A program made the translations under genes and the position numbers. From positions 55,045 through 119,044 of the forward strand of contig VBBS01000027.1 in assembly GCA_005888745.1 (NCBI GenBank): 64,000 nucleotides of DNA, written 5' to 3'. Below, piece by piece: positions 6,984-61,536 of the stretch. The first letter of the stretch is position 1; each line of letters begins with the position of its first letter. The notes under the pieces are model-generated. The model did not search any database. It was not told the origin of the DNA and saw only the letters and a list, made by a program, of their open reading frames with translations. The DNA is from Candidatus Bathyarchaeota archaeon. Its GTDB lineage: Archaea > Thermoproteota > Bathyarchaeia > 40CM-2-53-6.

Positions 6984-7580
6984 TTAACTGTCTTGCTTGG
7001 CTGTCTCGACCGGTAGTGGAGCGTCTTCCCCAAGCTGGAGTACTTTCTTCAGTTCTTTTTTCATGAGTGATGGGTCATGGTTGAGATTGAAGTAGTCTGC
7101 GAACGTTGTAGTCGTCCTTAGCATTCTGGTTCTTCCGATCCTCTCGTCATTAATCAGGTCCATGTCCTTCAGCTGTTTCACATGGCCGTAGGCCAGTTTA
7201 CCGCGAACCCGTACCACGTAGGACTGGGTGACAGGCTGCTTCAGAGCTATGAATGATAACGTCCGAAGGGGTCCTGGTGTTAGAAGCGGTCTGTTCGCCA
7301 GTTTTCGAACGTGCTTAGCGAATTCTGCCTTTAGCTGCATGACAAAGCGTCCGTCGGGAAGTTCCACGACTTGAATCGGACTACTGGCGGTTTTGTAACG
7401 TTCAGAAACCGCCGTTGCGATTCCGCGTATCTTGTCCTCTGATCTAGCGCCTACGACAGACCCGATCATCTTCAGGTCTAGTGGTCTTCCGGATACGTAC
7501 AGTGCAGCCTCGCAGAGCTGCTGCTGTAGGTCAGCAGTTTTCTGCTGAGCTGTGTTAGTCGAAACTTGTGTTTCCGTCGT
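6984..7580 (-). CDS. scpB: segregation and condensation protein B (ScpB)
   Basis: Winged-helix ScpB pattern. The family N-terminal motif (EAALYVSGRPLDL) is encoded upstream of the first ATG (7469). The only start-like codons in the open 38-codon extension are ACG 7580 and ACG 7577. The start is uncertain. Confidence 0.75.
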   Translation of the reverse strand, partial: TTETQVSTNTAQQKTADLQQQLCEAALYVSGRPLDLKMIGSVVGARSEDKIRGIATAVSERYKTASSPIQVVELPDGRFVMQLKAEFAKHVRKLANRPLLTPGPLRTLSFIALKQPVTQSYVVRVRGKLAYGHVKQLKDMDLINDERIGRTRMLRTTTTFADYFNLNHDPSLMKKELKKVLQLGEDAPLPVETAKQDS

Positions 7581-31226: not shown

Positions 31227-32735
31227 GTGGAGTTGCGTGAGAATGATGTTAAAGTCCTGAGAACTCTCCGGGACGCGGGCGGAATCGCTTCAGCTGAAGA
31301 TATAATCCGGAAAGCCGGCATAGTCGACGCGGCTGTTGCCCGCGCGTCACTCACACTGTCAGAACTAGGCCTAGTCAAGGAACAGACAACAAGGACCACC
31401 GAAATATTTTGTACCGAGGAAGGACATGATTATCTGGCTAATGGACTACCCGAGCGAAGGGTCGCCACGGTAGTTCACGATGCCGGGGGAAAACTCTCGG
31501 TCAGCGAAGCGGTCCAGCAAGCGGGTCTGCCACAAGACTTTGTCTCAATAGTCACAGGCTGGATTGCCCGCAAACGCTGGGGAAAGATCGAGAAAACAAG
31601 TTCAGGCAATATTCTACTGATCTCGAAAAACCCGCCCAAAGACGAAGATGAAGAGGTTCTCGAGAGAATTGGCCATGTCAGCATTCCAATAGAAGAATTG
31701 CCGAGCAACCTGAGACAAGCAGCCGATAGACTCCTCAAGAGAAACATCCTGGCCTCGAAGGAACGAGTACAGCGGAAACTACAGATCACCCCTCAAGGGT
31801 TGGACGCGATTCCGGCCCAAGCATCTGTCGATGAGATTAGCAGTCTAACAAGCGAGATGATTCTCTCTGGAGACTGGAAGAGAGTCCACCTTCGATCGTA
31901 CAATGTTTCTTCACCTGTCCCTTCGCTCAGTCCTGGAAAGTATCATCCTTACTTGCGATTCTTGCGGAGGGTCAAACGGAAGCTTGTTGCGCTCGGGTTC
32001 AGAGAGGCTGTCGGACCCCTGGTCGAAACCGCCTTCATCAACGACGACTGCCTCTACATGCCGCAAGATCATCCAGCGAGAGAAATCCACGATCTCTACT
32101 ACCTGAAACACCCGTCCAAAGCGAGCCTGGAATCATGGAAGGAAATCGTGGAGAAGGTAGCGCAGACCCACGAGAACGGCTGGAAGACAGGGTCCACCGG
32201 ATGGGGCTACAAGTACTCGAGAGAAGAAGCCTCCAAACTAGTCCTTCGGAGCCACGGCACCGCTCTAAGTGTCCGGTCAATGATTTCCAAGGACCTTCAG
32301 ATTCCAGGCAAATACTTTGCTATCGCGAGGTGCTTCCGGCCCGAACTCCTCGACAGAACTCACTTGACAGAATTCAACCAGGCGGAAGGGATCGTTCTCG
32401 ATCCCAGCCTCAACCTACGCAATCTCCTCGGGGTCTTGGAGATGTTCGCTCGCGAGGTCGCGGGGGCCGACAGGGTCCGTTTCAAACCCGACTACTTTCC
32501 ATTTACAGAACCCAGTGTCGAGTTGCAAGCCTACAAGGAAGGATACGGATGGATGGAGTTCGGCGGCAGCGGAATATTTAGACCCGAAGTCACAGAACCC
32601 CTCGGCATCAAAGTACCCGTGATCGCGTGGGGGCTCGGAATAGACAGGCTGTTCATGATGAACCAGCAGATCCAGGATATCAGACAGCTCTTCACAACTG
32701 ACCTCGAATGGATAAGGCAACAGAAGGTCGGCTAG
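31227..32735 (+). CDS. pheS: phenylalanine--tRNA ligase alpha subunit
   Basis: Class II motifs (FRPE..D.THLTEFNQAEG, GSGIFRPEV) and the long N-terminal winged-helix extension typical of archaeal/eukaryal PheRS alpha. Confidence 0.9.
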   Translation: MELRENDVKVLRTLRDAGGIASAEDIIRKAGIVDAAVARASLTLSELGLVKEQTTRTTEIFCTEEGHDYLANGLPERRVATVVHDAGGKLSVSEAVQQAGLPQDFVSIVTGWIARKRWGKIEKTSSGNILLISKNPPKDEDEEVLERIGHVSIPIEELPSNLRQAADRLLKRNILASKERVQRKLQITPQGLDAIPAQASVDEISSLTSEMILSGDWKRVHLRSYNVSSPVPSLSPGKYHPYLRFLRRVKRKLVALGFREAVGPLVETAFINDDCLYMPQDHPAREIHDLYYLKHPSKASLESWKEIVEKVAQTHENGWKTGSTGWGYKYSREEASKLVLRSHGTALSVRSMISKDLQIPGKYFAIARCFRPELLDRTHLTEFNQAEGIVLDPSLNLRNLLGVLEMFAREVAGADRVRFKPDYFPFTEPSVELQAYKEGYGWMEFGGSGIFRPEVTEPLGIKVPVIAWGLGIDRLFMMNQQIQDIRQLFTTDLEWIRQQKVG

Positions 32736-32736
32736 A

Positions 32737-34422
32737 ACGCCCTCAGTCCAATTCTCTCTGGCGGATCTGGAAGATCTCCTTGGACAGAAGGTTCCCCGAG
32801 ACGAAGACGGGCTCAACCAGCTCCTCGCCTACGTCAAGGGCGACGTGGAATCCCTCGACGAACAGAATGACAGCGTCAGCATCGAGGTCAAAGACAGCAA
32901 CCATCCCGACATCTGGTCGGTAGAGGGAATCGCACGCGCTCTCCGCACTCATCTCGGTCTTACCAAGCCCAAGGCTCCAATCCTTACCGGAAAATCCGGT
33001 CTGAGAGTCACAATAGATCGTAGACTAGGTGCAGTCCGGCCTTTCATCGCAACCTCCATCGTGAGAAACGTCAAGCCAAGCGAGGACGCCCTGAAGAGCT
33101 GGATAAGCCTACAAGAAAAAATGGACCTCACGTACGGTAGAAAGAGAAAACGTGCCTCAATCGGGTTCTACCAAGCCGACCTGATCAAGTCACCTCTTCG
33201 CTACACTGTTGGCAATCCTGAAGACACAGGGTTCGTCCCCCTAGGCTCAACAGAGAAGATGTCTCTCCGAGAGATTGTAGAGAAGCATCCTAAGGGAATT
33301 GAGTATGGAGGAACAATCTCATCTTTCAAAGACTGGCCGCTCCTGGAGAACGGCGACGGCAAGATTCTCTCTCTTCCACCAATCATCAACTCCAACGATC
33401 TGGGCAAGATCGCCTCAGATACGAAGAACATCCTGGTAGAGGTCACAGGGACGAATATCGAAACCGTAGGCAATACGCTGAAGATAGTCGTAGCCGCTCT
33501 CGCCGAAAGAGGAGGCAAGATCTACAGCTGTACTCAAACCTACACGGACAAGTACTCCAAGCCGATAACTACGCCAGACCTGAAATCCAGCATCAAGGAA
33601 TTATCAGTCAACTATGCTAACAGACTTCTTGGATCCACGTTCAAACCAGCAGAGATGATACGATCCTTAGTGAGAGCCGGCCATCCTGCTCGACAGGTGA
33701 GTAAGGACATCTTGCGCGTGGAGAGCCTCTGCTACCGTATCGACATCATGCATCAAGTTGACCTCGTCGAGGATCTCGCGATCGCACTTGACATTAACAG
33801 GCTAGATCCTGAATGGCCGAGAATCTGGACTCTCGGGGGACTAGCGCCTGAAACAGATAGACACGAGACTCTTGCCGAAATCATGATCGGGCTAGGATAC
33901 CAGGAGCTTCTGACCTACAGTCTGACATCCCCTGAAGTCTTCGTTGACAAGATGGGCATAAAACGCGAAAAATACGCGGAGCTGATGAATCCTAAGATGT
34001 CAACCCATACCGCATTGAGAACCTGGCTTCTACCCAGCATTCTCAATTTGCTCAAGGACAATACTCATGTCGATTATCCTCAGAGAGTCTTCGAGATCGG
34101 ACCTTGCGTAGTTGTCAAAGAAAATGGCGAAGGTCAGACGGAAACTCGATACAAGATCGCTGCGGCGACAGTTCACACAGCAGCCGGCTTCACTGAGATT
34201 CGATCTTGCCTCGACACACTCCTCGCAAGCATCGGGGTCAAGTTCGAGGTCGTGCCCACGGTTCAACCGAGCTTTCTCGAGGGACGCACTGGGGAGGTGA
34301 TGTCAGGGCAAGAGCGACTAGGAGTAGTTGGAGAGTTGCACCCGAAGATAATCCGTGCTTGGAGTCTCAGCCTCCCCGTCGCAGCTTTCGAACTAGAGAT
34401 TCCACCAATGGAGGCTGGTTAG
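32737..34422 (+). CDS. pheT: phenylalanine--tRNA ligase beta subunit
   Basis: Archaeal PheT architecture. The conserved N-terminus PSVQFSLADLEDLLG is encoded upstream of the first canonical start (GTG 32845). The only start-like codon after the in-frame stop (32713-15) is ACG 32737. Confidence 0.85.
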   Translation, partial: TPSVQFSLADLEDLLGQKVPRDEDGLNQLLAYVKGDVESLDEQNDSVSIEVKDSNHPDIWSVEGIARALRTHLGLTKPKAPILTGKSGLRVTIDRRLGAVRPFIATSIVRNVKPSEDALKSWISLQEKMDLTYGRKRKRASIGFYQADLIKSPLRYTVGNPEDTGFVPLGSTEKMSLREIVEKHPKGIEYGGTISSFKDWPLLENGDGKILSLPPIINSNDLGKIASDTKNILVEVTGTNIETVGNTLKIVVAALAERGGKIYSCTQTYTDKYSKPITTPDLKSSIKELSVNYANRLLGSTFKPAEMIRSLVRAGHPARQVSKDILRVESLCYRIDIMHQVDLVEDLAIALDINRLDPEWPRIWTLGGLAPETDRHETLAEIMIGLGYQELLTYSLTSPEVFVDKMGIKREKYAELMNPKMSTHTALRTWLLPSILNLLKDNTHVDYPQRVFEIGPCVVVKENGEGQTETRYKIAAATVHTAAGFTEIRSCLDTLLASIGVKFEVVPTVQPSFLEGRTGEVMSGQERLGVVGELHPKIIRAWSLSLPVAAFELEIPPMEAG

Positions 34423-35583: not shown

Positions 35584-36543
35584 ATGTCAGAGGAGTATCC
35601 TTTCAAGCATAGCAAACTTAGGAGTATGGTGGATTCAGTGTACGATTCGGAAGCCCTGAACTCTTTCCGGAAATCAGGCCAGATCATCGCAAAGCTCCGG
35701 AAGGAAATAGCCTCCATCGTCAAGCCGGGAAAACCCGCGCTGAAGATATGCGTGGAAATCGAAAGCCGGATTCGGGAGCTCGGAGGCAAGCCGGCCTTCC
35801 CCGTCAATATCGGGATCAATGAGATTGCCGCACACTACACGTCGCCGCCCGGCGACACTCTAACCATTCCCTCCGGGTCAATGGTGAAAGTTGACTTCGG
35901 GGTCCACGTGAACGGTTACGTGACGGACACGGCTGTGACCGTTTTCTATGATCCGAAATTCGAACCGATGGTGAAGGCTGCTGACGATGCATTGCAGAAC
36001 GCAATCAAAACATTCAGAGGAGGAGTCAAACTATCAGATATCGGACGAGTCATCCAGACAACGATAGGAAAGTATGGGTTCCGACCCATTAGCAATCTCA
36101 CAGGTCACAGCATCGAAAGGTACAGCATTCACGCAGGTAAATCCGTGCCAAACGTTCCAGTGCTTGCCGCAGGGAAGGCAAACGAAGGCGAAGTGTTCGC
36201 CATCGAACCTTTCGTAACCCTGCCCGACGCCGCAGGCTCCGTCACAAACATGCTGCCGGCCCAGATCTACCGCTACATAAAATCCAAAGGCGTTAAAAAC
36301 GACGAGTCCAAGAAAGTCCTCGACGACATATACGCAAGATTCTCAACCCTGCCCTTCGCACCCCGCTGGCTGGAAGACAAGTTCCCTAGAGAGACCGCTA
36401 AGCGCGCGATGCTAGACCTGACACACAACAAGTGTGTAGGCGGATATCCTGTCTTAGTGGAGGAGACTCGGAGACCCGTTGCCCAGTCAGAACATACGGT
36501 TCTGGTCGGACGGGATGACTGTACCGTACTTACAACAGACTGA
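35584..36543 (+). CDS. map: methionine aminopeptidase, type 2
   Basis: Pita-bread metal ligands (VDFGVHVNGYVTDTA, LTGHSIE, FAIEPF, SEHTV). Confidence 0.85.
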   Translation: MSEEYPFKHSKLRSMVDSVYDSEALNSFRKSGQIIAKLRKEIASIVKPGKPALKICVEIESRIRELGGKPAFPVNIGINEIAAHYTSPPGDTLTIPSGSMVKVDFGVHVNGYVTDTAVTVFYDPKFEPMVKAADDALQNAIKTFRGGVKLSDIGRVIQTTIGKYGFRPISNLTGHSIERYSIHAGKSVPNVPVLAAGKANEGEVFAIEPFVTLPDAAGSVTNMLPAQIYRYIKSKGVKNDESKKVLDDIYARFSTLPFAPRWLEDKFPRETAKRAMLDLTHNKCVGGYPVLVEETRRPVAQSEHTVLVGRDDCTVLTTD

Positions 36544-38236: not shown

Positions 38237-38503
38237 CTACCACATAGATCGCCTGGGAGATTCACTTCCGTGCTTCCGGTACGAGTCAAGCATCGCCCTA
38301 AGTGTTCCTGCCTTGCCAACATCACTGAATCCGATCCTATCACAGAATCGGAGCAAGTTGTCCCTGCCAAGGATGGCTAACTTCCAACTTGTAATCGTGC
38401 TCCTTCGAACGCCAGCCTTGGTGTCCAAGTACAACTTGGAGTCGATGCCCATTTCGGTGAGCATCCCGCCGATGTTTTCTAGGAGCATACTATTTGTGTC
38501 CAT
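38237..38503 (-). CDS. small ORF resembling the C-terminal half of a LAGLIDADG homing endonuclease (possible remnant)
   Basis: L..MGIDSKLY......R.STITSWKLAILGRDNLLRFCDRIGF...K resembles the second-half scaffold of these enzymes. No intact LAGLIDADG motif is present. Confidence 0.25.
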   Translation of the reverse strand: MDTNSMLLENIGGMLTEMGIDSKLYLDTKAGVRRSTITSWKLAILGRDNLLRFCDRIGFSDVGKAGTLRAMLDSYRKHGSESPRRSMW

Positions 38504-41263: not shown

Positions 41264-41956
41264 TTGCTCACCGAGTCGCAGTCAGAGATGCTTGGGATAC
41301 TGTTCGGAGATGGGTCGATGTCTGAGAATCACAACTCCGTTCAGATCGTCATAACCGGTCACAAATTCGATGACGTAGAGTACCTAATTGGCCGCGTAGG
41401 TCCGATGTTCGCGGAACTCTTTGAAATGCCCCTCAAGGTACATCTAGTGAAAGATGAAAATACGATGATCCTCTACGCTTACTCCAAACGAATTGCCCTG
41501 ACCCTTCACGAATGGGGAATGCCTTTTGGCCGAAAAAAACTGGCCTGGCTCACACCGCACGTCGCATTGGATGAAGTATCTTTCGTCAGAGGCTTATTCG
41601 ACACAGATGGCTGTGTCTATCGCAAGTATGGCCCTTATTTGCAAATCCAGTTTAAGTTCGCTTCCCTTTCGCTCCTTGAGTACGCGAGGGAGTGTCTGGT
41701 AAGACTCGGCCTGAATCCCACATCGATCAGGTGCGACGATACGAAGTTCAGGTTCTATCTCAGCAGACAAGCCGAGGTAGACCATTTCTTTAGGGTCGTA
41801 GAACCCAAGAACCCAAAGCATCTTAATCGTTTCCAAAATGCTTCTCGGAATCGGTCCTACCGCCCATACACACATCGTCCTGAAGCACTCAGAAGAATTG
41901 GAAACCAACCAAGCCTTATAGGACCAATTCTGTGGAAAACACACTCGGTGGGGTAA
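41264..41956 (+). CDS. free-standing LAGLIDADG homing endonuclease (double-motif)
   Basis: Two motifs: MLGILFGDGS and VRGLFDTDGC. It ends 27 nt upstream of the tRNA-Trp gene. Confidence 0.8.
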   Translation: MLTESQSEMLGILFGDGSMSENHNSVQIVITGHKFDDVEYLIGRVGPMFAELFEMPLKVHLVKDENTMILYAYSKRIALTLHEWGMPFGRKKLAWLTPHVALDEVSFVRGLFDTDGCVYRKYGPYLQIQFKFASLSLLEYARECLVRLGLNPTSIRCDDTKFRFYLSRQAEVDHFFRVVEPKNPKHLNRFQNASRNRSYRPYTHRPEALRRIGNQPSLIGPILWKTHSVG

Positions 41957-41983
41957 CTAAGGAAACCTTTCGACATAGGGCTT

Positions 41984-42164
41984 GGGGCCGTAGTCTAGCC
42001 AGACCCACTCCGGGTCCTAGTAAGGGACGACGACGGGCTCCAGAATCTATGAAACATGCACACCGACCAATATCGAGGGATGAGGAAATTCGGGAGCGCG
42101 TGAAGATACCCGTAGACGAGGGACTCGGCGGATGTCGTGGGTTCAAATCCCACCGGCCCCACCA
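41984..42164 (+). tRNA. tRNA-Trp (anticodon CCA) interrupted by three putative introns; CCA end encoded
   Basis: Acceptor GGGGCCG (41984-90) pairs with CGGCCCC (42154-60). The T arm is GTGGG-TTCAAAT-CCCAC. The anticodon arm is ACGGG (42033-37), loop CTCCAGA, and CCCGT (42109-13). A cloverleaf results only if about 22 nt (D-loop, ~42001-42022), 64 nt (37/38, 42044-42107) and 18 nt (45/46, 42116-42133) are removed. Confidence 0.75.
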
Positions 42165-42619
42165 GTGTAGGGCAAATCGTCAGGGACTGGAAAGATCAGG
42201 ATCTCCTCAGCACAGACTTTGGGTCTAACCATGGCTCTTCAATCCGCCTTCGAGTCTGTTGAGGAATGAATCAATGTACTGCCGTGCGATCCCCCAATCA
42301 AAACGGCTGAGAGAGTCCGATCCGGCCCCGTGAGGACGCGTGTCGCATTGTCATCGATTCTAAGCTAGGTTCACGTAGAATGTCTCGGTCCACGTAAGCG
42401 AGTCCATGATGATTTTCAACTCAATACTGCCCGTTGTCTTGTCTGCTTTTGTGGCGTTCCATCTAGCATTCTGAACCACGAGCAGGAGTGCGTCCCAAAC
42501 CTTCTCAAAGGCGTGGGCAAATCTACCTTCTTTTCTAAAGGCAACTTCTCACATTGGGCCTGCAACCTGGCAATAAACTCACACCCCATCGTCTCCTCAA
42601 TGCTCGGGGCAAATTGAAC

Positions 42620-43170: not shown

Positions 43171-43665
43171 TTGAGTAGGCCTTCAAAGCAGGTAAGCACT
43201 TCCAAGACCACTCTCTCCAGTCAGATGATGCCTGTGGACGCCAATCCGATGGGAAACGTGCACGGGGGCACAATTCTCAAACTTGTCGATGTCGCCGCCG
43301 GAGTCACGGCCCTGCGACATGCGAGAACTATTGTGGTCACCGCAAGCATCGACCGTATGGACTTTTACCATCCAGTCTATGTCGGCAACCTTCTCAACTT
43401 CAAGGCCTCAGTCAACTACGCTGGAACAACCTCGATGGAAGTCGGAGTAAGGATAGAAGCTGAGGACCTGAAGACTGGTAGAATAACACACACCGGCTCA
43501 TCCTACCTCACCTATGTTGCTATAGATGAGAACGGACAACCAGTCGAGATTCCCGACGTCATCCCGGAGACACTTGACGAAAAACGACGCTGGAGAGAAG
43601 GAAAAAAGCGAAGGGCCGAACGCCTCAAGATCCTACAAGATCGAAGGAGCAAGGGCAAGGCCTAG
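43171..43665 (+). CDS. acyl-CoA thioesterase (hotdog fold, YciA/ACOT-like)
   Basis: ANPMGNVHGGTILKLVD...TASIDRMDF..PV.VG....A.V.Y.G.TSMEVGV. Confidence 0.8.
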   Translation: MSRPSKQVSTSKTTLSSQMMPVDANPMGNVHGGTILKLVDVAAGVTALRHARTIVVTASIDRMDFYHPVYVGNLLNFKASVNYAGTTSMEVGVRIEAEDLKTGRITHTGSSYLTYVAIDENGQPVEIPDVIPETLDEKRRWREGKKRRAERLKILQDRRSKGKA

Positions 43666-43677
43666 GGTCGACAAAGA

Positions 43678-44562
43678 ACGAAAGTCGCAATTGTAGGGTT
43701 CGGCATGATGGGCCGGCAGATAGCCCAAGTATTCGCCCAAAATGGCCACGAGGTCGAGGCCACGGATGAGGATCAGCAAGCACTGAAGGCGGGGCTCAAC
43801 GAAATAGCAGACGGGCCCTACGGATTGCACGCGGCTGTTTCAAAAGGAAAACTGGCTGCAGAGCAAGCTCACAGGACTCTAGCAGCCATCAAGACAAGAC
43901 CCGAGCTAGCGGATGTTTGCAAGAACTCGACTCTTGTGATCGAGGCAGCCTTCGAGGAGCTGCAACTCAAACAGAATCTGTTTCACAGAATTGAATCTGC
44001 TGCGCCACCAACTGCGATCATAGCATCAAACACTTCAACCTTGAGCCTGGACAAGATCACCCAAAGAATCTCAAGGAAGGACAGAACGATTGGAATGCAC
44101 TTCTTTAATCCAGCCCAGCTCACAAAACTCGTCGAGATCGTCCGAGGAACGTCGACATCACCTGAAACACTAGAGAAAGCGTCCCAAATCGTCCGGGAGA
44201 TCGGTAAGACCCCTATCCTCGCCCAAGATGAGCCTGGTTTCATCGCCAACCGTCTCGGACTCACCCTCTACATGGAGGCTTCAAGACTGCTAGAGGATCG
44301 TGTCGCAAGTCTCTCTGACATCGACACGTGCATGAGACTCGGATACAACCATCCAATGGGACCCTTCGAACTAGCCGACTTCGTCGGACTTGACACCAGA
44401 CTTCGGAATCTAGAATCACTCTACAAGTCAACGAATGAAAGTAAATGGATACCACCTCAGATTCTAAGAGAGATGGTCCAACAAGGATACCTCGGCGACC
44501 CTGCTAGAAAGAAGACGAGCAAGGGCGGATACTACGAGTATCTCCGGATAAAGCGAGGATAA
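43678..44562 (+). CDS. 3-hydroxyacyl-CoA (3-hydroxybutyryl-CoA) dehydrogenase
   Basis: The HADH family core is present (NTSTLSL, HFFNPA). The Rossmann beta1-GxGxxG element KVAIVGFGMMG starts upstream of the first ATG (43705). ACG 43678 directly precedes KVAIVG. Confidence 0.85.
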   Translation, partial: TKVAIVGFGMMGRQIAQVFAQNGHEVEATDEDQQALKAGLNEIADGPYGLHAAVSKGKLAAEQAHRTLAAIKTRPELADVCKNSTLVIEAAFEELQLKQNLFHRIESAAPPTAIIASNTSTLSLDKITQRISRKDRTIGMHFFNPAQLTKLVEIVRGTSTSPETLEKASQIVREIGKTPILAQDEPGFIANRLGLTLYMEASRLLEDRVASLSDIDTCMRLGYNHPMGPFELADFVGLDTRLRNLESLYKSTNESKWIPPQILREMVQQGYLGDPARKKTSKGGYYEYLRIKRG

Positions 44563-48077: not shown

Positions 48078-49235
48078 GTCTTAGGCCGCATCGGAATCGT
48101 TGGAGTTGGACATTCAAAGTTCGGAAAAAGGAGCGACGCCTCCCTCCGAGAGCTAGCATTCGAAGCGTACAGTTCCGCCCTAGATGACGCCGACATCGAC
48201 TCTTCAAAAATAGACGGTTCAATAGTTTGCTCCGCCACTCACTACGACAAGCAACGATCGCCTGCAGGTGTTGTTGCGGAATATCTCGGACTCAATCCCC
48301 AACCAACATTCAACGTTGAGGCAGCCTGCGCCTCCAGCGCTGTTGGCCTTCGGACCGCGTGGGCGCTTGTCTCATCAAAACTTCATGATGTGGTGGCCGT
48401 TGTGGGGGTGCAGAAGATGACCGAACTCTCCTCGGAGGAGATCCAGGAGCTCATGGGCAGAGCAGGGGACGTCATGTGGGAGTCTCCCTTCGGAACAACA
48501 ATGCCCGCATACTACGCCTCCTATGCTAACGCCCACATGGCCAAGTACGGAACTACAGAGGAACAAATGGCGCTCGTGTCGGTGAAGAACCGAAAATACG
48601 GATCCAAGAATCCTAACGCCATGTTTCAAAAACCCATCCAATTGGAAGAGGTCCTAAAATCGCGAATGGTATCTTATCCTCTAAAACTATACGATTGCTG
48701 CGCCAATGCTGACGGGGCGGCATGTCTGCTCATTACTAGTGCCGAAAAAGCAAAGAAAATTTCTGATAGACCCGTATGGATCTCCGGGCTTGGCCTGGCT
48801 TCGAGTCCCATGTCGCTTGCTGGAAGAAAAGGTCCATTGACGAGTTTCGATGCCACAAGAAATGCGGCGAGAACGGCATACGAAATGGCCAATATCAAAC
48901 CACACGACGTACATGTGGCGGAGGTTCATGACTCTTTCTCGGTAACAGAAATCATCAATTATGAAGACCTCGGATTCGCACGACCTGGAAGGGGTGCTAA
49001 GCTTCTGGAAAACCAAGGCACGGAGCTCGGCGGGAGAATCCCCGTCAACATCGACGGAGGCTTGATTTCCAAAGGCCATCCAGTCGGAGCCACAGGCGCG
49101 TCCCAGATCTTCGCATTGGTCAAACAACTACGGGGGGAAGCGGGTAGCGTTCAGGTCGACGGCGCTAAGATTGGTCTCGCACAGAACATAGGGGGAATAG
49201 GAATGTACTGCTCCGTTACGATCTTGCGCTCATGA
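48078..49235 (+). CDS. thiolase (SCP-x / archaeal acetyl-CoA C-acetyltransferase type); start codon unresolved
   Basis: The frame is open from 48063. The N-terminus RIGIVGVGHSKFGKR and the catalytic-Cys region NVEAACASS lie upstream of the first canonical start (GTG 48390). The C-terminal GHPVGATGA is also present. The start given is approximate (GTC 48078, TTA 48081 or ATC 48090). Confidence 0.85.
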   Translation, partial: VLGRIGIVGVGHSKFGKRSDASLRELAFEAYSSALDDADIDSSKIDGSIVCSATHYDKQRSPAGVVAEYLGLNPQPTFNVEAACASSAVGLRTAWALVSSKLHDVVAVVGVQKMTELSSEEIQELMGRAGDVMWESPFGTTMPAYYASYANAHMAKYGTTEEQMALVSVKNRKYGSKNPNAMFQKPIQLEEVLKSRMVSYPLKLYDCCANADGAACLLITSAEKAKKISDRPVWISGLGLASSPMSLAGRKGPLTSFDATRNAARTAYEMANIKPHDVHVAEVHDSFSVTEIINYEDLGFARPGRGAKLLENQGTELGGRIPVNIDGGLISKGHPVGATGASQIFALVKQLRGEAGSVQVDGAKIGLAQNIGGIGMYCSVTILRS

Positions 49236-49281: not shown

Positions 49282-50208
49282 TTGCAGGTGGACATTCAAG
49301 AGTTGACCCCCATTCAAAGCTTCGGCAGAAGAATTCGAGCCTATGATAAAGCCACACGCCTCGCAAAGGAAGGTCGCCCTGTCACTGAAATCTCGAAAGA
49401 GACGGGAACGCCTGACGCTACCATCAGGGGATGGCTCGTAAACGGTCGAAAACCTTGGACCCGCTGCGAACTCTTCAAACCAACGTACTCTGATCAATTA
49501 ACATATGTTATCGGTGTTTACATGGGAGACGGCTCGATTTCCCGATGGAGAAATCGTTTTTTACTGCGATTAGATGTCAAAGACAAAGAATTCGCCGATA
49601 AGTTTTCTTCAACATGCGCACATGTTCTGGGTAGGAAACCATATTCTGTGAGGCATGTCAGGGATAGGGACACATACGAGACTATCATTTCAAACGCGTC
49701 TTTCTGCAAGTTCCTCAACCGAGGCCTCACCCACCTGGATCGGTATGTACGGGAGCATCCCTCTGGCTTTGTTAGAGGTTTAGCTGATAGCGATGAGTGC
49801 CCCACTGTGACAACAACAAAAAAGCGGGGCAAACCCTGGTTCTTCGTCCAAGTTGTAGTAGCAACATCCAAGAGCATACGCTTACTGAGCTATACTCGGA
49901 CGATCCTGAGGGAATGCCTCGGACTCAAAGCGACGCTAGTGTACAAAGGCAAGCCAAGACCCAGTGTGTTCAAGAACAAGTTGCTCCGTTCAAGAAAGAG
50001 GGTCTTTGACCTTAGGATATCGCGCTTTGGTGACGTGAAACGATTCTCCCGGGTTGTTGGTTTCGAATTGGCTCGGAAACAAGAGAAGCTTGCCGCTGCT
50101 ATCTTCGTCCGTGAAGGATTTGGTTCTGGTCAGGATGCGGTGAAAGAGTGGACCCGTCGCTGGGAGCATGGCACCACTGAGTGGATTCTCAAGAAAGGAG
50201 TGGACTAG
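49282..50208 (+). CDS. LAGLIDADG homing-endonuclease-like protein with N-terminal HTH
   Basis: Motifs YVIGVYMGDGS and FVRGLADSDEC. The N-terminal EGRPVTEISKETGTPDATIRGWL is HTH-like. It sits between the thiolase and DUF35 genes. Confidence 0.7.
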   Translation: MQVDIQELTPIQSFGRRIRAYDKATRLAKEGRPVTEISKETGTPDATIRGWLVNGRKPWTRCELFKPTYSDQLTYVIGVYMGDGSISRWRNRFLLRLDVKDKEFADKFSSTCAHVLGRKPYSVRHVRDRDTYETIISNASFCKFLNRGLTHLDRYVREHPSGFVRGLADSDECPTVTTTKKRGKPWFFVQVVVATSKSIRLLSYTRTILRECLGLKATLVYKGKPRPSVFKNKLLRSRKRVFDLRISRFGDVKRFSRVVGFELARKQEKLAAAIFVREGFGSGQDAVKEWTRRWEHGTTEWILKKGVD

Positions 50209-52990: not shown

Positions 52991-53758
52991 CTAGGTGCCA
53001 ACCATCGTGCCCATGCTCGGTCTCTTTCGCAAGAACCCGAACCGCGGAAGCTGAAGCTGAATCCCTATCCCGTTTATGATATCGAACCGTACGAGCCGCG
53101 GTATAATCTGGCGACGATCCATTTTCCTGACGAGCAAGTATCGACGTAGCACCTGGTGCTCTTCTACCATTCGCAGTTCTACCACGCCGTCCACGAGACT
53201 CTCGACCTTGTGAAACAGTTCCGGCTGGACACTGCCCGTTGAGAGGGTGGCTATCATTTTTCCTCCCACCTTCTTGACTTTCGCGGCAATACTCTGGATG
53301 AAACTGACGGCATGTTTCGGCTCAGCTTCGCTAAAGATCGGCATCAACGAGTCAAGTATGATGGTCACCTGGTGATTGCCCATCTTTTCCATTACGGAGG
53401 TCAAATGAATGCTGACATTGGTCAGGTCGAATGGTTGAGGAACCACTCCCTCGGTAACTCCAGCGGTTGCAGAGTAACAATCAATGATGCCAAGTTTGTT
53501 GAGCAACTGGTACTTCCTCGGGTCCCAGCCAAACTGGCTCATTCTCTCGAGAATGTTCGAAGGAAACGTGTCGTATGTGACTATGATACAGGGTCTCGAT
53601 CTCTGAAGCTCCTCGTAGAGGATCTGTTGTGCAAGAGTCGTCTTTCCACTACCTGGGTCGCCTGTGATCAGCACAGACGAGGAATCGGGCAGACTGCCCC
53701 CTATGAGCGCGTAAAATCCCTTGAAGGGCGCGGACCTAGTCTCCAGTTGTGAGTTCAC
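52991..53758 (-). CDS. single-domain KaiC/RecA-superfamily ATPase
   Basis: LITGDPGSGKTTLAQQ Walker A, and Walker B IILDS. Confidence 0.7.
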   Translation of the reverse strand: MNSQLETRSAPFKGFYALIGGSLPDSSSVLITGDPGSGKTTLAQQILYEELQRSRPCIIVTYDTFPSNILERMSQFGWDPRKYQLLNKLGIIDCYSATAGVTEGVVPQPFDLTNVSIHLTSVMEKMGNHQVTIILDSLMPIFSEAEPKHAVSFIQSIAAKVKKVGGKMIATLSTGSVQPELFHKVESLVDGVVELRMVEEHQVLRRYLLVRKMDRRQIIPRLVRFDIINGIGIQLQLPRFGFLRKRPSMGTMVGT

Positions 53759-55643: not shown

Positions 55644-56051
55644 TTGTGGCAGGCGTATGACAAGTCAGCTTTGGAACTTGGAGATCTCGAGGCAGCTGTC
55701 CTCGGGACAGTTGTTCGGCTTGGCAACGCTTCTGCCCGCCAAGTCGCTCAGGACCTGCATGCTACCCGTGGACTCGCATACACTACAATCAGTACAACGC
55801 TGGATCGTCTTTACAGGAAGGGGATCTTGGCCCGTGATGAGGCTGTTGGCAGAGGAGGGTCCAGATACGTGTATCGCCTTCACTCCGAGGACAAGGTCAA
55901 GGGTCGAGTCGTGAAAGGATTCGTTGACAGGTTGCTCACAGCCTTTGGACCCAGCATTATCTCGACGTTGCATGACTACATGGATGAGATTCCAAAGGAG
56001 GACCTGAAGAAGCTGGAAGAAAGAGTTCGTAGGGAGTCCGGGCAACGATAA
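55644..56051 (+). CDS. BlaI/MecI/CopY-family transcriptional repressor
   Basis: LEAAVLGTVVRLGNASARQVAQDL......YTTISTTLDRLYRKGIL.R winged-helix pattern. Confidence 0.75.
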   Translation: MWQAYDKSALELGDLEAAVLGTVVRLGNASARQVAQDLHATRGLAYTTISTTLDRLYRKGILARDEAVGRGGSRYVYRLHSEDKVKGRVVKGFVDRLLTAFGPSIISTLHDYMDEIPKEDLKKLEERVRRESGQR

Positions 56052-56956
56052 GCCTGGAACTGTACTCGCTCTACTTCCTTTCGACAGCTACCCTGGGAAT
56101 TGTAGCAACAGTTCTGATAGTCCAAATTGCTTCCTATATCGCCTACCGATCAAGTGTGGGAAATCCCTCTCGCAGATCCAGCCTCCTATATCCGATACTA
56201 TCCTCTTCTGTTTTCTTCTGGTCGTTTCTTGGAACTAGCCTTGTAGTGTGCACGCTCTTCCTCAATATGTACGAGTGGCAATCACAACGAGTGATAAGAC
56301 TCGTGTTTGGAAGTTCGCTGGTAGCATCTATCGGAATCTCCTCTCTCATGTCCCTTATTGCTCGAAGATACGCGTTCCCTAGAATGCTTGGGGGAATGAT
56401 CGCAGGAACATTCTCGAGCTCTAGACTGAGCGAAACATGTGCGGAGCTATGCAACAAGATGGGTATCAAAGGAGTCGACCTTAGAGAAGCTAGGGTGGGA
56501 AACGCGTTTTCTTTGGACAATGGGAGTTGGAAGGTCGTTGCCGTATCTCCCGAGCTGGTGAGTTCCATGTCACCGGCGGAAGTCGAGGCGGTCATTGCTC
56601 ACGAGATCTCTCACTTGAAGAACAAGGATTCTCGAGAGAAGGGACTTGCAAGGCTGGCTAAACTGGCCTTCGTTTTTGACCCCGTGCTGCATCTTGTTGA
56701 GGCTGCGGTCCACAGAGAACGTGAACTCCTCGCCGACCAGTTGTCAGTGGAATACACTCAGAAGCCGTTGGCACTCGCATCAGCTTTGCTGAAGGTTCAT
56801 TCAGCCTTCCACGCCCCATTGCCTGGGCCTGGAGCCGGATTGTTTGTAGGTCGAAAGACAAGAGGTCTCTTGAGCAGGTATCCCGACCTTGATCGAAGAG
56901 TCCAGCTGCTAATTGACATGGACCGAGAGATGAAGACTCAGACGATCCCCGCCTGA
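56045..56956 (+). CDS. BlaR1-type (M56/M48) membrane zinc metalloprotease, no sensor domain
   Basis: HEISHL (HExxH) plus downstream E(RE)LLAD, and several TM helices. The first canonical start is GTG 56156, but a further hydrophobic helix is encoded in frame upstream. ACG 56045 overlaps the BlaI stop. Confidence 0.6.
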   Translation, partial: TISLELYSLYFLSTATLGIVATVLIVQIASYIAYRSSVGNPSRRSSLLYPILSSSVFFWSFLGTSLVVCTLFLNMYEWQSQRVIRLVFGSSLVASIGISSLMSLIARRYAFPRMLGGMIAGTFSSSRLSETCAELCNKMGIKGVDLREARVGNAFSLDNGSWKVVAVSPELVSSMSPAEVEAVIAHEISHLKNKDSREKGLARLAKLAFVFDPVLHLVEAAVHRERELLADQLSVEYTQKPLALASALLKVHSAFHAPLPGPGAGLFVGRKTRGLLSRYPDLDRRVQLLIDMDREMKTQTIPA

Positions 56957-57025
56957 AGGAACGCTCTTTTATAGCCTCACCAGGTTTGGATTGCGGACTT
57001 GACAGTTCAAATTCAGAAATACAAA

Positions 57026-58431
57026 ATGCTGATCGGGGGAGAGTGGAAGGACAGCGCAAATGGCGCTGTTTCATCAGTTCTTGATCCTTCAAACAACGTA
57101 CAAGACAGGACGCGAAAGCTGCAGTCGTGAGTGCGAAGATCGCGCTGGAGTCGGCCGGCTGGGTCGACATTGATCCCAGCAAGAGAGGGCGTCTCCTAAC
57201 TAAGCTCACAACTCTGGTCAGGGAGAATTCAGAGCAGCTGGCAAAGCTTGAAACCATGAGTGAGGGGAAGACTCTCCGAGAGTCTAAGGGTGATGTTGCC
57301 TGGGCGGCCAGGGCGTTCGAGTACTGGGCAGGACTGGCGGACAAGGTTGAAGGAGAAACCATACCTGTTCCGCCGAGACGTCTGAACTACACTCTTCGTG
57401 AGCCGCTAGGCGTAACGGTCCATATTGTTCCTTGGAATTATCCGATCGCGCTTGCTGCTAGAAGTTTGGCACCGGCAATTGCAGCAGGGAATACTGTTGT
57501 CGTGAAACCGTCTGAGATTACTCCTCTTACAGCGATTATGCTGGGAGATCTAGCGCTTAAGGCCGGCATCCCCAAAGGTGTTATCAACGTTGTAACTGGA
57601 TCAGGTGCTGAAGTAGGCGAAGCACTTGTGTCGGACCCGCGAGTGGACGGGATAGTTTTCACAGGGTCCGCTGAGACAGGAACGCAGGTGATGGAGTCAG
57701 CCGCGAAAAATGTTACAAGGGTACTTCTGGAGTTAGGCGGTAAGAACCCGCATATTGTCTTCCCTGACGCCGACTTGGCGAAGGCCGCTAAGAGCGTGAA
57801 GGAAGGCATTTTCACCAATGCTGGACAAATGTGCTGGGCCGGATCTAGGGCATTCATTCACGAGAGCATATACGATGATTTCGTAAAGGACCTCGTCGCC
57901 AAGACCCGAGCGATAAAGGTCGGGCCTGGAAGAGATGATACCAGCGAGATGGGACCCTTAGCCTCAAAGGCTCGGCAAGACGTGGTTCTCGGGTTTGTCA
58001 AGGACGGCCTCGAAGAAGGGGCAAGTCTTCTCTGCGGGGGGAAGAAACCATCTGACCCAGGACTGCAGAAGGGAAATTTCGTCGAGCCCACCATTTTCGA
58101 GAACGTCAACGGGAAGATGAAAATCGGGTGCGACGAGATTTTCGGACCTGTTCTGGGCCTTACCCAGTTCAAGACTCTCGACGAGGTTGTTGCTATGGCC
58201 AATGAGACAGATTATGGACTATACGGGGGAGTCTGGACGAGCAATTTGAAAGTCGCTCATGAACTCGCTGTTCGTCTCCAGGTCGGTGGACTAGCCGTGA
58301 ACGAGTATTTGGTGACCTTTCCGCAGACCCCGTTCGGCGGCTACAAGGACAGCGGAATAGGACATGAAAACGGCATACGCTCGTTAGAATTCTACACACG
58401 AACCAAGAATGTCTCGATAAACCTTTCCTAG
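57026..58431 (+). CDS. NAD(P)-dependent aldehyde dehydrogenase, N-terminus frameshifted
   Basis: The ELGGKNP and GQMCWAGSR catalytic motifs lie in the main ORF (57127..58431). The family N-terminus MLIGGEWKDS...LDPS is in another frame starting at ATG 57026. Confidence 0.8.
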
Positions 58432-58767: not shown

Positions 58768-59694
58768 CTAGGTAAGCTCGTCCAGCAACGGCGTAATATC
58801 ACGGTTGTAAATATCCTGCTCGACAAAGGGCTTTTCTTTCAGGGCGGGCATTCGAAGAGCCAGCTGGTCCTCGAAGGTAGGAACCTCCATCTTGAAGAAA
58901 ACCCCGATCGGTATCTTGTCGCCCCACTCGAAAGACTTCACCAGGGCATTTCCCTTCTTTGTGTTAACCTCGTCCGTCGTGGGATCGGCAACCGTACCAT
59001 TGTACCCTGAATCCTCCAGCTTGTAGAGCCTCGGTGCCTTGACCGGAAGATCTTCGCCACCATACCATTCTTTCGTGTTGATGTCGTTATAGGTCGGGCA
59101 TGTTTGCAGAACATCTACGAACGCGCTTCCCCGATGTTCTATTGCCGCTCGAAGGGTTTGCTTCAAGTGGCGAACGTCAAGAGCATAACTCCGCGCAACG
59201 AACGTATAGCCCGAAGCGACTGCCATAGCGATCGGATTCACACGCTCAATGATCGCGGGGGCAGGCATCGATTTCGTTTTCACACCCTTCGGCAGGGTCG
59301 GAGATGCCTGACCTTTTGTCAAGCCGTAGACTCCATTATCGTAGAGCACGTATGTGAAATCCAGGTTCCTTCGACCAGTATTGACGAAGTGGCCTGCTCC
59401 TATTCCCAGTCCGTCTCCGTCGCCACCAACAGCGACAACGGTCAGTCCTGGGTTAGAAAGACGGGCACCAGTAGCGATTGGAAGGACACGGCCATGGAGA
59501 GTATGGAACCCGTACGCGTTAACAAAATGAGGTGTCTTGCCTGAGCATCCGATTCCCGAGAAGATCGCGACCCTGTGGGGTTCAAGCTGCATTTCTAGAA
59601 GGGTCATCTGAATCGCGTTGACGATTCCGAAGTCTCCGCAACCAGGGCACCAGTCGTTGTGAACCTGTGTCCGGTAGGTCTTTAGCTCAAGCAT
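58768..59694 (-). CDS. 2-oxoacid:ferredoxin oxidoreductase beta subunit (TPP-binding)
   Basis: WCPGCGDFG and GGDGDGLGIG motifs. Confidence 0.9.
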   Translation of the reverse strand: MLELKTYRTQVHNDWCPGCGDFGIVNAIQMTLLEMQLEPHRVAIFSGIGCSGKTPHFVNAYGFHTLHGRVLPIATGARLSNPGLTVVAVGGDGDGLGIGAGHFVNTGRRNLDFTYVLYDNGVYGLTKGQASPTLPKGVKTKSMPAPAIIERVNPIAMAVASGYTFVARSYALDVRHLKQTLRAAIEHRGSAFVDVLQTCPTYNDINTKEWYGGEDLPVKAPRLYKLEDSGYNGTVADPTTDEVNTKKGNALVKSFEWGDKIPIGVFFKMEVPTFEDQLALRMPALKEKPFVEQDIYNRDITPLLDELT

Positions 59695-60121
59695 GAGATA
59701 CGGTTACCTCTTTGATTCCGTTCTTTATTATGTCTTTGACACCCTCGTAGATTTCGTTCTGGGAAAACGGTCTTCCGTCGAACTTTACAATAGTATTGTC
59801 CATTGCAATACCGGTTTTCTCACGGATCAACCCTGCCATCTGTGCGGAGTAATTGTTTTCGATCGCGATCTTCCGCCGGGCCGAACCAAGTGCCTGCTGA
59901 ACGAAGCTTGTTGGGAACGGGCTAACGTATCGCACCTGTAGAAAGTTTGTTTCTATCCCGTCGCTCTTGAGGTCTTCCATGCCGTCGAGTATCGCTCCCT
60001 TCGATGACCCCCAGCCAACGAGTGTAATCAGAGCCGATGTTGGTCCGTGCAAGGTTGCCTTCTTTGAGTCCGGTATTACTTGTCCAGCAAGCTCGATCTT
60101 TCTCATTCTCTTCCTCATCAT
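59687..60121 (-). CDS. 2-oxoacid:ferredoxin oxidoreductase alpha subunit, C-terminal part (separated by a frame break)
   Basis: In its frame this ORF continues upstream as ...GGIFWTTGDEHDEYGHITEAPDIRIKMMRKRM, the conserved alpha-subunit segment. Confidence 0.8.
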   Translation of the reverse strand: MMRKRMRKIELAGQVIPDSKKATLHGPTSALITLVGWGSSKGAILDGMEDLKSDGIETNFLQVRYVSPFPTSFVQQALGSARRKIAIENNYSAQMAGLIREKTGIAMDNTIVKFDGRPFSQNEIYEGVKDIIKNGIKEVTVSHA

Positions 60122-61536
60122 CTTGATCCGGATATCCGGCGCCTCCGTGATATGACCATACTCGTCATGCTCATCTCCAGTTGTCCAGAAGATCCCCCCT
60201 TTCTGACCAGGAATTGCTCGGGGGGAAATTCCCAGTTCTGTCCAACGGTAGCGTCGATGCTTATGGCGAGATCTGATTCTCGAACCAAGTCTCCCCGATC
60301 GACCTTCAGGTTGTCGCCGTTGAAAGGAGGAATATCTTGGTAGGTGCTCGCCAGGAACTTGTCGGTCAGAAGTATGACGGGCACTTGGTAGCGTTCCGCG
60401 TAGTTGAACGCGTCGAACGTGTCGTAGTAAGTTTCGACCACATCTCCGGGTGCAATAATTATCCGAGGAAATTCTCCATGGGCAGCGTGAAGAGCAAATC
60501 TTAGGTCTGCTTGCTCCGTCCGAGTCGGCAGCCCAGTTGCAGGACCTGCCCGCTGATATAGCACGACAACTGGTCCAGGGGCTTCAGTTATCCCGGCCCA
60601 CCCCAAGCCTTCGGCCATAAGAGAAAAGCCCGGTCCAGATGTAGAGGTAGAAGATCTGAGACCAGCGTGAGCCGCACCGGTGGCCATGTTGATCGCGGAA
60701 ATCTCGTCCTCTGCTTGTACGACTATCATATTGTAGTCCTTCTGGTGGGACTCCAAGTACTCGCTCTCGTCCGTTGCTGGTGTAATGGGATAGTAGGTTT
60801 GGAATCCACATCCGGCCTTGAGTTTCGCGATAGCCACGGCTTGTACACCTCTGATCATCATTCGCTTTCCAGACAGCGGTTGCTTTCGCAGCTTTATCGG
60901 AAACGCATCTTCGCCGAAACCCGCCTTTGCATAATCGTATCCGCGTTTCGCGGCGCTGACGTTTAGGTCGCCGAGAGCTGCCTTGCGTCCGGTGAACCCT
61001 TCTCTAATGGCCTCGGTTGCGAGGTCAAAGTCGTAATCGGCGAGGCCAAGGGAAGCCCCTAGAGCAATCGTGTTGACCATAACCTGGTACTTGCTCAGTT
61101 CCTTGTCCTTTCCAAACTCCTTCAGCGCCTCGACAAGGAGATCCATGTAGGGGATCGGAAAGAGTTTGATATCATCACGCCCGAAAGAGTCAGGTGACAG
61201 GTTCAAGCTGCGATCGTAGATTATTCCACCTCCAGGGCTGACCTCGTGTCTATGCCCTCGATGGGTAGGACGAAGCTTGTTCATGTCGCCGAAGATTGTT
61301 TCCCGGTCGAGGGCTACGAGTAAGTCTACCCAGTCCACGTGGGATCTGGGCGCCTTTGACTCTACTCTGAGCCTGTAGTAGCTATGTTCGCCCTTGATGT
61401 TGGAGTGATACTCGATGTTGGCAAATATGTGAAGTCCTCCACGAATGCATGCTTTTGCAAAGTTCTCTGCAACCGAGTTGATCCCGCTGCCTTGAGGACC
61501 GCCTATCATCCAGGTGAAACTGTTGGTTACTGTCAA
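60118..61536 (-). CDS. 2-oxoacid:ferredoxin oxidoreductase alpha subunit (gamma-alpha fusion type), N-terminal part
   Basis: N-terminal IGGPQGSGINS (gamma-like domain) followed by YPITPATDE (alpha). The last ~20 codons look out of frame. Confidence 0.85.
   Translation of the reverse strand: MTVTNSFTWMIGGPQGSGINSVAENFAKACIRGGLHIFANIEYHSNIKGEHSYYRLRVESKAPRSHVDWVDLLVALDRETIFGDMNKLRPTHRGHRHEVSPGGGIIYDRSLNLSPDSFGRDDIKLFPIPYMDLLVEALKEFGKDKELSKYQVMVNTIALGASLGLADYDFDLATEAIREGFTGRKAALGDLNVSAAKRGYDYAKAGFGEDAFPIKLRKQPLSGKRMMIRGVQAVAIAKLKAGCGFQTYYPITPATDESEYLESHQKDYNMIVVQAEDEISAINMATGAAHAGLRSSTSTSGPGFSLMAEGLGWAGITEAPGPVVVLYQRAGPATGLPTRTEQADLRFALHAAHGEFPRIIIAPGDVVETYYDTFDAFNYAERYQVPVILLTDKFLASTYQDIPPFNGDNLKVDRGDLVRESDLAISIDATVGQNWEFPPEQFLVRKGGSSGQLEMSMTSMVISRRRRISGSR

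Follow-up and report, generated by a model that had tools for sequence, protein, structure and literature searches.

Candidate ACG start codons in pheT and other operon-internal genes of soil Bathyarchaeia

From which codon is a protein begun when its gene offers no ATG, GTG or TTG at the conserved N-terminus? The question is raised by pheT, the gene for the beta subunit of phenylalanyl-tRNA synthetase (PheRS), in a 64,000-nucleotide stretch of a Candidatus Bathyarchaeota archaeon genome (contig VBBS01000027.1 of assembly GCA_005888745.1, positions 55,045 to 119,044; hereafter the window, whose own numbering is used throughout), where an ACG occupies the position expected of the initiator codon. 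An earlier note on this DNA had pointed out the codon and claimed the same pattern at three other places in the window. Based on comparison with related genomes, ACG is probably used as a translation start in a lineage of soil Bathyarchaeia, where it would be read by the standard initiator Met-tRNA.

ACG at the pheS-pheT junction

On the forward strand, the pheT frame contains an in-frame TAA at 32713-32715 and its first ATG, GTG or TTG is the GTG at 32845-32847, which public gene callers have chosen as the start of a 525-aa PheT. The 36 codons ahead of this GTG translate as TPSVQFSLADLEDLLGQKVPRDEDGLNQLLAYVKGD. The stop codon of pheS (TAG, 32733-32735) is followed by a single base (A, 32736) and then by ACG at 32737-32739, and a pheT gene starting there would span 32737-34422 and encode 561 aa. 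A Shine-Dalgarno (SD)-like GAAGGT (32723-32728) lies inside the 3' end of pheS, 8 nt upstream of the ACG. The positions of the two stops, the ACG and the GTG given in the earlier note all match the sequence; its description of ACG as the sole near-cognate codon among the eight upstream codons does not hold, since AGG at 32725-32727 is also one base from ATG. This AGG falls within pheS and matches the start of no relative in the alignment.

The junction was compared across 19 Bathyarchaeia genomes, one per species, with the relatives of the window being metagenome-assembled genomes (MAGs) from grassland soil (CRIT/Angelo-type; 'Crenarchaeota archaeon 13_1_40CM_3_52_17' and 'Bathyarchaeota BA_19...BA_25'). 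This alignment, which the earlier note had proposed as a check, places ACG in the start column of eight of the 19 genomes (L007-L014), down to 59% protein identity, and ATG or GTG in the other 11, which comprise the sister genome BA_6 (L025), with ATG, and ten remote Bathyarchaeia, with ATG or GTG. MNGN01, VBBP01, VBBQ01, VBBR01, VBBT01 and VBBN01 are MAGs with ACG at pheT, and BA_6 corresponds to VBBA01. The arrangement of stop codon, one nucleotide and ACG is retained in 8/8 of the ACG-bearing relatives, and the codons neighbouring the ACG have undergone many synonymous changes among them. All 19 junctions keep an (A/G)GGT motif 6-10 nt ahead of the start column, whether the codon is ACG, ATG or GTG. 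A wrong base call, one of the options that had been entertained for this codon, is refuted by the occurrence of ACG in eight independent MAGs and, for a second gene described below, in 31 metagenome contigs, with synonymous variation around it.

The 35 codons between the ACG and the GTG (32740-32844) have a pooled synonymous divergence (pS) of 0.54 and a nonsynonymous divergence (pN) of 0.059 among the ACG-bearing genomes, a ratio of 0.11, with pS reaching 0.98 against BA_19. Because of this low ratio and the high synonymous divergence, the extension is evidently under purifying selection and translated, and the ACG state at pheT is evidently old. When the same segment is aligned with the N-terminal fragment of PheRS beta solved from P. 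horikoshii (2CXI), residue 2 pairs with residue 2 (PKFDVSKSDLERLIG vs PSVQFSLADLEDLLG) and the 35 codons match residues 2-36 of the fragment, and the ACG therefore falls at the Met1 position of the folded domain, in agreement with the claim that it stands where the initiator Met is expected. No internal canonical start is conserved among the ACG genomes, in which the first canonical codon falls at columns 36, 43 and 53 and the GTG at 32845 is not shared by the others. The production of a truncated PheT from that GTG, a possibility raised at the outset, is contradicted by the pN/pS ratio, by the alignment to 2CXI and by the lack of a conserved internal start. A methionine aminopeptidase gene (Peptidase_M24; 35638-36543, forward strand) lies directly downstream of pheS-pheT-trpS, a placement that is probably coincidental though relevant to the N-terminal processing of proteins that would start at ACG.

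Recurrence of the pattern in other genes

The gene for a 3-hydroxyacyl-CoA dehydrogenase (3HCDH; forward strand, extending over 43678-44562 when its Pfam domain and the start column of relatives are taken into account) has an ACG at the initiator position (43678-43680), 12 nt past the TAG of a 4HBT gene (43663-43665). The codons from 43678 onward, ACG-AAA-GTC-GCA-ATT-GTA-GGG-TTC-GGC-ATG-ATG-GGC, read (T)KVAIVGFGMMG, and position 1 of Pfam 3HCDH_N is the residue directly after the ACG. The first canonical codon is the ATG at 43705, nine codons past the ACG and inside the GxGxxG motif, and the public call uses such an internal ATG, giving a protein of 285 aa; a start at 43705 would delete Rossmann strand beta-1 and half of the GxGxxG motif. 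Across 73 related metagenome loci, the start column holds ACG in 31 and ATG in 41. A neighbor-joining tree of the 64 unique genes consists of 23 ATG outgroups and one clade of 29 ACG haplotypes, within which a subclade of 12 ATG haplotypes is nested, and it indicates one gain of ACG followed by one nested reversion to ATG at the same codon. Among the ACG haplotypes, the spacing from the TAG of the 4HBT gene to the ACG is 11 or 12 nt.

On the reverse strand, the gene for ScpB (6984-7577, as delimited by Pfam and the N-termini of relatives) has two successive ACG codons at its N-terminus (7575-7580), the second of which (7577-7575) corresponds to Met1 of the relatives. The N-terminus in the window, ACG-ACG-GAA, reads TTETQVS. 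In dozens of relatives (72-94% identity) the protein starts with METQVS or MEAQVS, and in one with MMEAQVS. At the DNA level, two relatives (L111 and L112) have ATG GAA at the start and a third (L110) has ACG AGG GAA; the latter is the source of a public, truncated ScpB call of 161 aa, for which the full length would be 197 aa. Position 2 of Pfam ScpB precedes the first canonical Met by 16 residues. The codon for this Met (ATG 7469) is 36 codons past the ACG, and a start there would delete the first helix of ScpB. The two genes ScpA and ScpB overlap, the second ACG preceding the ScpA stop by 23 nt and standing in another frame. For both of these sites the claim of the earlier note is fully confirmed, by the start-column comparison for 3HCDH and by the Met1 of relatives at the second ACG for ScpB.

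With these three genes it is possible to weigh the reading followed by public gene-caller annotation (including P0085), in which translation begins at GTG 32845 in pheT, ATG 43705 in 3HCDH and ATG 7469 in ScpB, the products are truncated and functional, and the upstream codons are untranslated. Agreement with the databases is what it has in its favor, and opposing it are the pN/pS of 0.11 that the pheT extension maintains within the ACG genomes, the structural elements that each protein would forfeit (36 structured residues in PheT, in addition to those named above) and the lack of conservation of the internal canonical codons among the ACG genomes, which together make it very improbable. A fusion of the downstream protein to the upstream one through stop readthrough or programmed frameshifting, by which no start codon would be needed, has an even smaller probability. 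The ACG of 3HCDH in the window is in frame with the TAG of the 4HBT gene, and pheT is always +1 relative to pheS, as such a mechanism could require; against this, the variable distance from TAG to ACG ahead of 3HCDH leaves the frame relation unfixed, the ACG of ScpB lies upstream of the ScpA stop and in another frame, and in relatives an ATG or GTG in that column is plainly the point of initiation.

Similarly small is the probability that the ACG codons result from sequencing or assembly error or from the decay of pseudogenes. Two window genes are indeed broken by indels, ALDH and porGA, and a TTA at the start column of a thiolase-like gene (see below) is limited to one haplotype, for which an error is a possible explanation. 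The ACG codons, however, recur in the eight MAGs for pheT and the 31 contigs for 3HCDH, from different samples and assemblers, and follow the phylogeny, and pheT is an essential gene under purifying selection. The ALDH gene (56992-58431, forward strand) was considered as another gene without a start and rejected, as its TTG start is normal and is followed, near 57097, by a deletion of ~25 nt that shifts the frame when compared with the intact 476-aa gene in L114 and L115; either the gene is a pseudogene or the assembly is defective here. The porGA gene (pyruvate:ferredoxin oxidoreductase gamma-alpha; 59687-61536, reverse strand) is split into two overlapping open reading frames (ORFs) by a net 7-nt deletion at ~60255-60270, relative to an intact 609-aa gene in the same two relatives.

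A fourth gene, for an M48/BlaR1-like peptidase on the forward strand, has a probable ACG start at 56045-56047, overlapping the end of a BlaI-like gene (ACGATAA). The window shares this in-frame ACG with five close relatives and with L114, L115 (58% identity) and L109 (48%), and the first canonical codon (GTG 56156) is 37 codons past it; the called lengths of the homologues are scattered from 186 to 302 aa. As this ACG is at the same time part of the last two codons of the BlaI-like gene upstream, the case is graded as probable only. A CTG at 56054, which aligns with the TTG start of P0225/L109, is a less likely candidate for the start, this column being variable (CTG/CTC/TTA/TTG), with CTC and TTA in L114 and L115, and the in-frame ACG being present in all of them. 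Of the pattern claimed here by the earlier note, the conserved in-frame ACG stands, and its use as a start is only probable, given the codons shared with the upstream gene and the 56054 column.

Other non-canonical codons are found at start columns in the window and in relatives. The thiolase-like gene has TTA (48081-48083, forward strand) where relatives have ATG (29), TTG (7) or CTG (6); position 3 of Thiolase_N lies 5 residues past the TTA, the first canonical codon is 103 codons downstream, and the single haplotype with TTA, which also occurs in an independent contig (L029), has an AGGAG motif ~10 nt upstream. In one MAG (GCA_040961345.1; L113), a MoCF-domain gene has ACG at the GTG column of the window (L113:1824), as the sole near-cognate available and with the first canonical codon 68 codons later, and a DUF7121 gene has CTG where the window has ATG (L113:3408); the public calls for these two genes are truncated (178 vs 266 aa and 166 vs 254 aa, respectively). 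KaiC-like orthologues of the window gene at 52991-53758 (L080, L082, L090 and L089) are without a canonical start near the conserved N-terminus, with a CTG that pairs with the L106 TTG in the alignment and an ACG standing two codons ahead of the GTG column of the window. EthD orthologues (L101, L106) have CTG at the start column, and a DUF1512 orthologue (L080) has TTA or CTG. None of ATA, ATC, ATT or AAG was found at any start column examined, and the only other near-cognate at such a position was the AGG of L110, adjoining an ACG.

Free-standing ORFs with LAGLIDADG domains occur at 49282-50208 and 41264-41956 on the forward strand and at ~38237-38503 on the reverse strand. The first of these separates the thiolase gene from that for ChsH2-OB; in L114 only 5 nt lie between the two genes, so the ORF looks like an insertion.

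Start usage, operon position and the reading of ACG

The codon ACG has a frequency of 13.6 per 1000 sense codons, and its presence at the phylogenetically conserved start columns of at least three unrelated genes in one 64-kb window is more than chance provides. A reassignment of ACG to Met was rejected: internal ACG codons align with Thr in 763 codon pairs, the largest class, followed by Ala with 85, and they interchange with ACA, ACC and ACT in aligned proteins. In-frame stops lie 1-8 codons upstream of the ACG starts, and for pheT, 3HCDH, ScpB and the MoCF gene of L113 no canonical start would keep the conserved N-terminal domain. Among the 57 curated genes of the window, TTG starts (~23) are more common than ATG (~19) and GTG (~10), and the remainder are non-canonical, consisting of ACG in three to four genes plus the CTG and TTA cases. 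Many of the TTG starts are fixed across all relatives (e.g., 40552 and 45020). The predominance of TTG over ATG and the occurrence of CTG and TTA at start columns suggest that the lineage is generally relaxed in start-codon discrimination.

The ACG genes share a position within operons. When coupled genes are defined as those starting within -40 to +15 nt of an upstream stop on the same strand, 15 of 56 curated window genes are coupled, including all four ACG genes (hypergeometric p = 0.0037; 0.016 when only the three firm cases are counted). The distances to the upstream stop are +1 nt for pheT, -7 nt for M48, +11/12 nt for 3HCDH, -23 nt for ScpB and +24 nt for the MoCF gene of L113, and two of the pairs, PheS/PheT and ScpA/ScpB, are heteromeric. 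Termination-reinitiation in H. volcanii works from approximately -8 to +10 nt, drops by ~60% at a distance of 13 nt and disappears at 22 nt, and is enriched among gene pairs encoding heteromeric complexes (PMC10666635). The proposal in the earlier note that ACG is used for initiation, possibly by termination-reinitiation, is supported, with the operon position of all of the ACG genes favoring reinitiation.

The sequence of events most consistent with these observations would start from an ancestral ATG that became ACG by a T-to-C change at codon position 2 in pheT, 3HCDH, ScpB and probably M48, the genes staying functional. The ordinary initiator Met-tRNA (anticodon CAU) would pair with ACG with one central mismatch, and the ribosome would be delivered by termination-reinitiation from the close upstream gene (stop 1-12 nt upstream or overlapping) and/or held by an SD-like AGGT/GGAG motif 8-10 nt upstream. 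An SD-based test of the start register has little power, many genes of this genome being without an SD motif. Initiation of the eukaryote type, to which archaeal aIF1, aIF1A and aIF2 belong, counts ACG and CUG among its best near-cognates. The extended N-termini expected from the ACG starts are (M/T)PSVQFSLADLEDLLGQK, (M/T)KVAIVGFGMMGR and (M/T)ETQVSTNTAQQK. The position of the ACG codons, their conservation, their interconversion with ATG, the translation of the codons that follow and the lack of a canonical alternative are read directly from the alignments; which tRNA and amino acid initiate, what part coupling plays and how efficient initiation would be are inferred.

Several points weigh against initiation at ACG. 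The evidence for it is comparative, drawn from DNA and protein sequences. ScpB and the MoCF gene of L113 are spaced beyond the -8 to +10 nt over which reinitiation is efficient in H. volcanii, and SD motifs at their ACG codons are weak or absent; for these reasons strict coupling would not be the whole story. A central C-A mismatch is a poor pair, and E. coli initiates only very weakly at ACG. Since PheT is needed at 1:1 stoichiometry with PheS, reasonable initiation efficiency would be demanded of its start codon. Archaeal aIF1 discriminates against at least AUU (PMC4705826). Finally, the changes from ACG to AUG and from CUG to UUG are both C-to-U, making the codon set compatible with editing.

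Editing of the mRNA, by which C-to-U conversion would turn ACG into AUG and CUG into UUG before translation, as in plant organelles, is the strongest of these alternatives and nonetheless improbable. A single type of change would make both of the recurrent codons canonical, and the interconversion of ATG and ACG, with reversion, resembles the gain and loss of organellar editing sites in evolution. Counting against it, the five ACG sites have no common flanking motif (GGCTAGA-ACG-CCC, CAAAGA-ACG-AAA, GAGACG-ACG-GAA, GGGCA-ACG-ATA and CTTCAC-ACG-CGC), the flanks vary among haplotypes, TTA at start columns would not be rescued by C-to-U conversion, and we know of no C-to-U editing of mRNA in archaea. 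With approximate probes, tblastn returned no match to aIF1, aIF1A or a cytidine deaminase in the window and related loci, sequences that cover only a very small part of the genome.

A lineage-specific initiator-type tRNA with anticodon CGU, from which proteins could begin with Thr or Met, would account for the efficient and long-stable use of ACG in an essential gene, and is nevertheless quite unlikely: it leaves the CTG and TTA at start columns unexplained and would require altered rules of charging or aIF2 binding. No initiator tRNA of any kind was detected by ARAGORN, with and without introns, in the window and ~1 Mb of related loci, and no match at the Rfam gathering threshold was found in the window. 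ARAGORN with introns reports an odd, intron-containing tRNA-Trp(CCA) at 42011-42164 (forward strand), a call that neither default ARAGORN nor Rfam at the gathering threshold repeats; conservation of the region among relatives is strong, and an ORF that overlaps it, at 41884-42228, looks spurious.

A broader interpretation goes beyond leaky reinitiation and holds that the start rule has been heritably altered, such that ACG (and CUG) would be regular, efficient initiators for ~5-10% of genes, by means of a changed initiator tRNA or aIF1, an ACG-reading initiator tRNA or C-to-U editing of start codons. This is tentative and considerably less likely than the use of ACG as such with the standard initiator Met-tRNA.

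Significance and comparison with known systems

If initiation at ACG (and CUG) is real in this abundant lineage of soil archaea, the accepted archaeal set of AUG, GUG and UUG would be incomplete and the stringency of archaeal start selection more plastic than has been thought, and the lineage would offer a natural system for asking what sets start stringency, given the eukaryote-like factors of archaea. The association of ACG with tightly coupled, operon-internal genes suggests that termination-reinitiation may relax the need for a cognate start. In these organisms, standard gene callers would systematically shorten several percent of the genes or give them a wrong start. Errors of this kind in public databases include a PheT of 525 rather than 561 aa, a 3HCDH without Rossmann strand beta-1 and an ScpB of 161 rather than 197 aa, and they propagate to protein databases and metabolic reconstructions.

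Full-text literature searches returned no report of ACG starts in archaea or bacteria, in agreement with the statement of the earlier note that the feature is undescribed for archaea; the published literature on ACG starts that was retrieved is all eukaryotic or viral. According to a review, archaea use AUG, GUG and UUG, and aIF1 rejects AUU (PMC4705826). Ribosome profiling in H. volcanii assigned ~30% of putative alternative initiation sites to near-cognates, which were left out of consideration as potential false positives (Gelsinger et al. 2020, PMC7261190). Those sites share with the present ones the hint of near-cognate initiation in archaea, though they are alternative or internal, whereas the ACG codons described here would be conserved, sole starts of core genes.

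The termination-reinitiation described in H. volcanii (Huber et al. 2019, 2023) likewise involves co-directional gene pairs that overlap or have short spacers and that encode heteromeric subunits, and its geometry is fit or nearly fit by pheS-pheT (+1 nt), BlaI-M48 (-7 nt) and 4HBT-3HCDH (+11/12 nt). It differs in that the published restart codons are canonical, a restart at ACG being unreported, and ScpB and the MoCF gene of L113 fall outside the efficient range. Editing in plant organelles also acts on a genomic ACG at a conserved initiator position that interconverts with ATG, but relies on PPR-type site-recognition factors, a system not known from archaea, and the sites here are without a common cis motif.

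Bacterial genes with rare starts (AUU of infC; CUG, AUA and AUC in translation table 11) are in many cases under autoregulation or expressed at a low level. They resemble the present cases as prokaryotic genes with an initiator other than AUG, GUG or UUG, yet ACG is absent from the table 11 initiators, and ACG in three to four of 57 genes is far above the isolated bacterial cases. The efficiency of an ATT start is quoted as ~0.3% (PMC10666635). Near-cognate initiation in eukaryotes and viruses (VP2 of adeno-associated virus and plant upstream ORFs) is similar in that an in-frame ACG stands at a functional start and is presumably read by the standard initiator Met-tRNA with one mismatch, and the best eukaryotic near-cognates match the set that appears to be tolerated here (ACG, CUG). 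The differences are that the present codons belong to an archaeon with SD-bearing polycistronic mRNAs and without scanning, and that housekeeping genes, among them the one for an essential aminoacyl-tRNA synthetase subunit, would have no other start, a state conserved across the whole lineage. Near-cognate initiation is thus known in kind, and what appears to be new is its lineage-wide and conserved occurrence, in archaea and in core genes.

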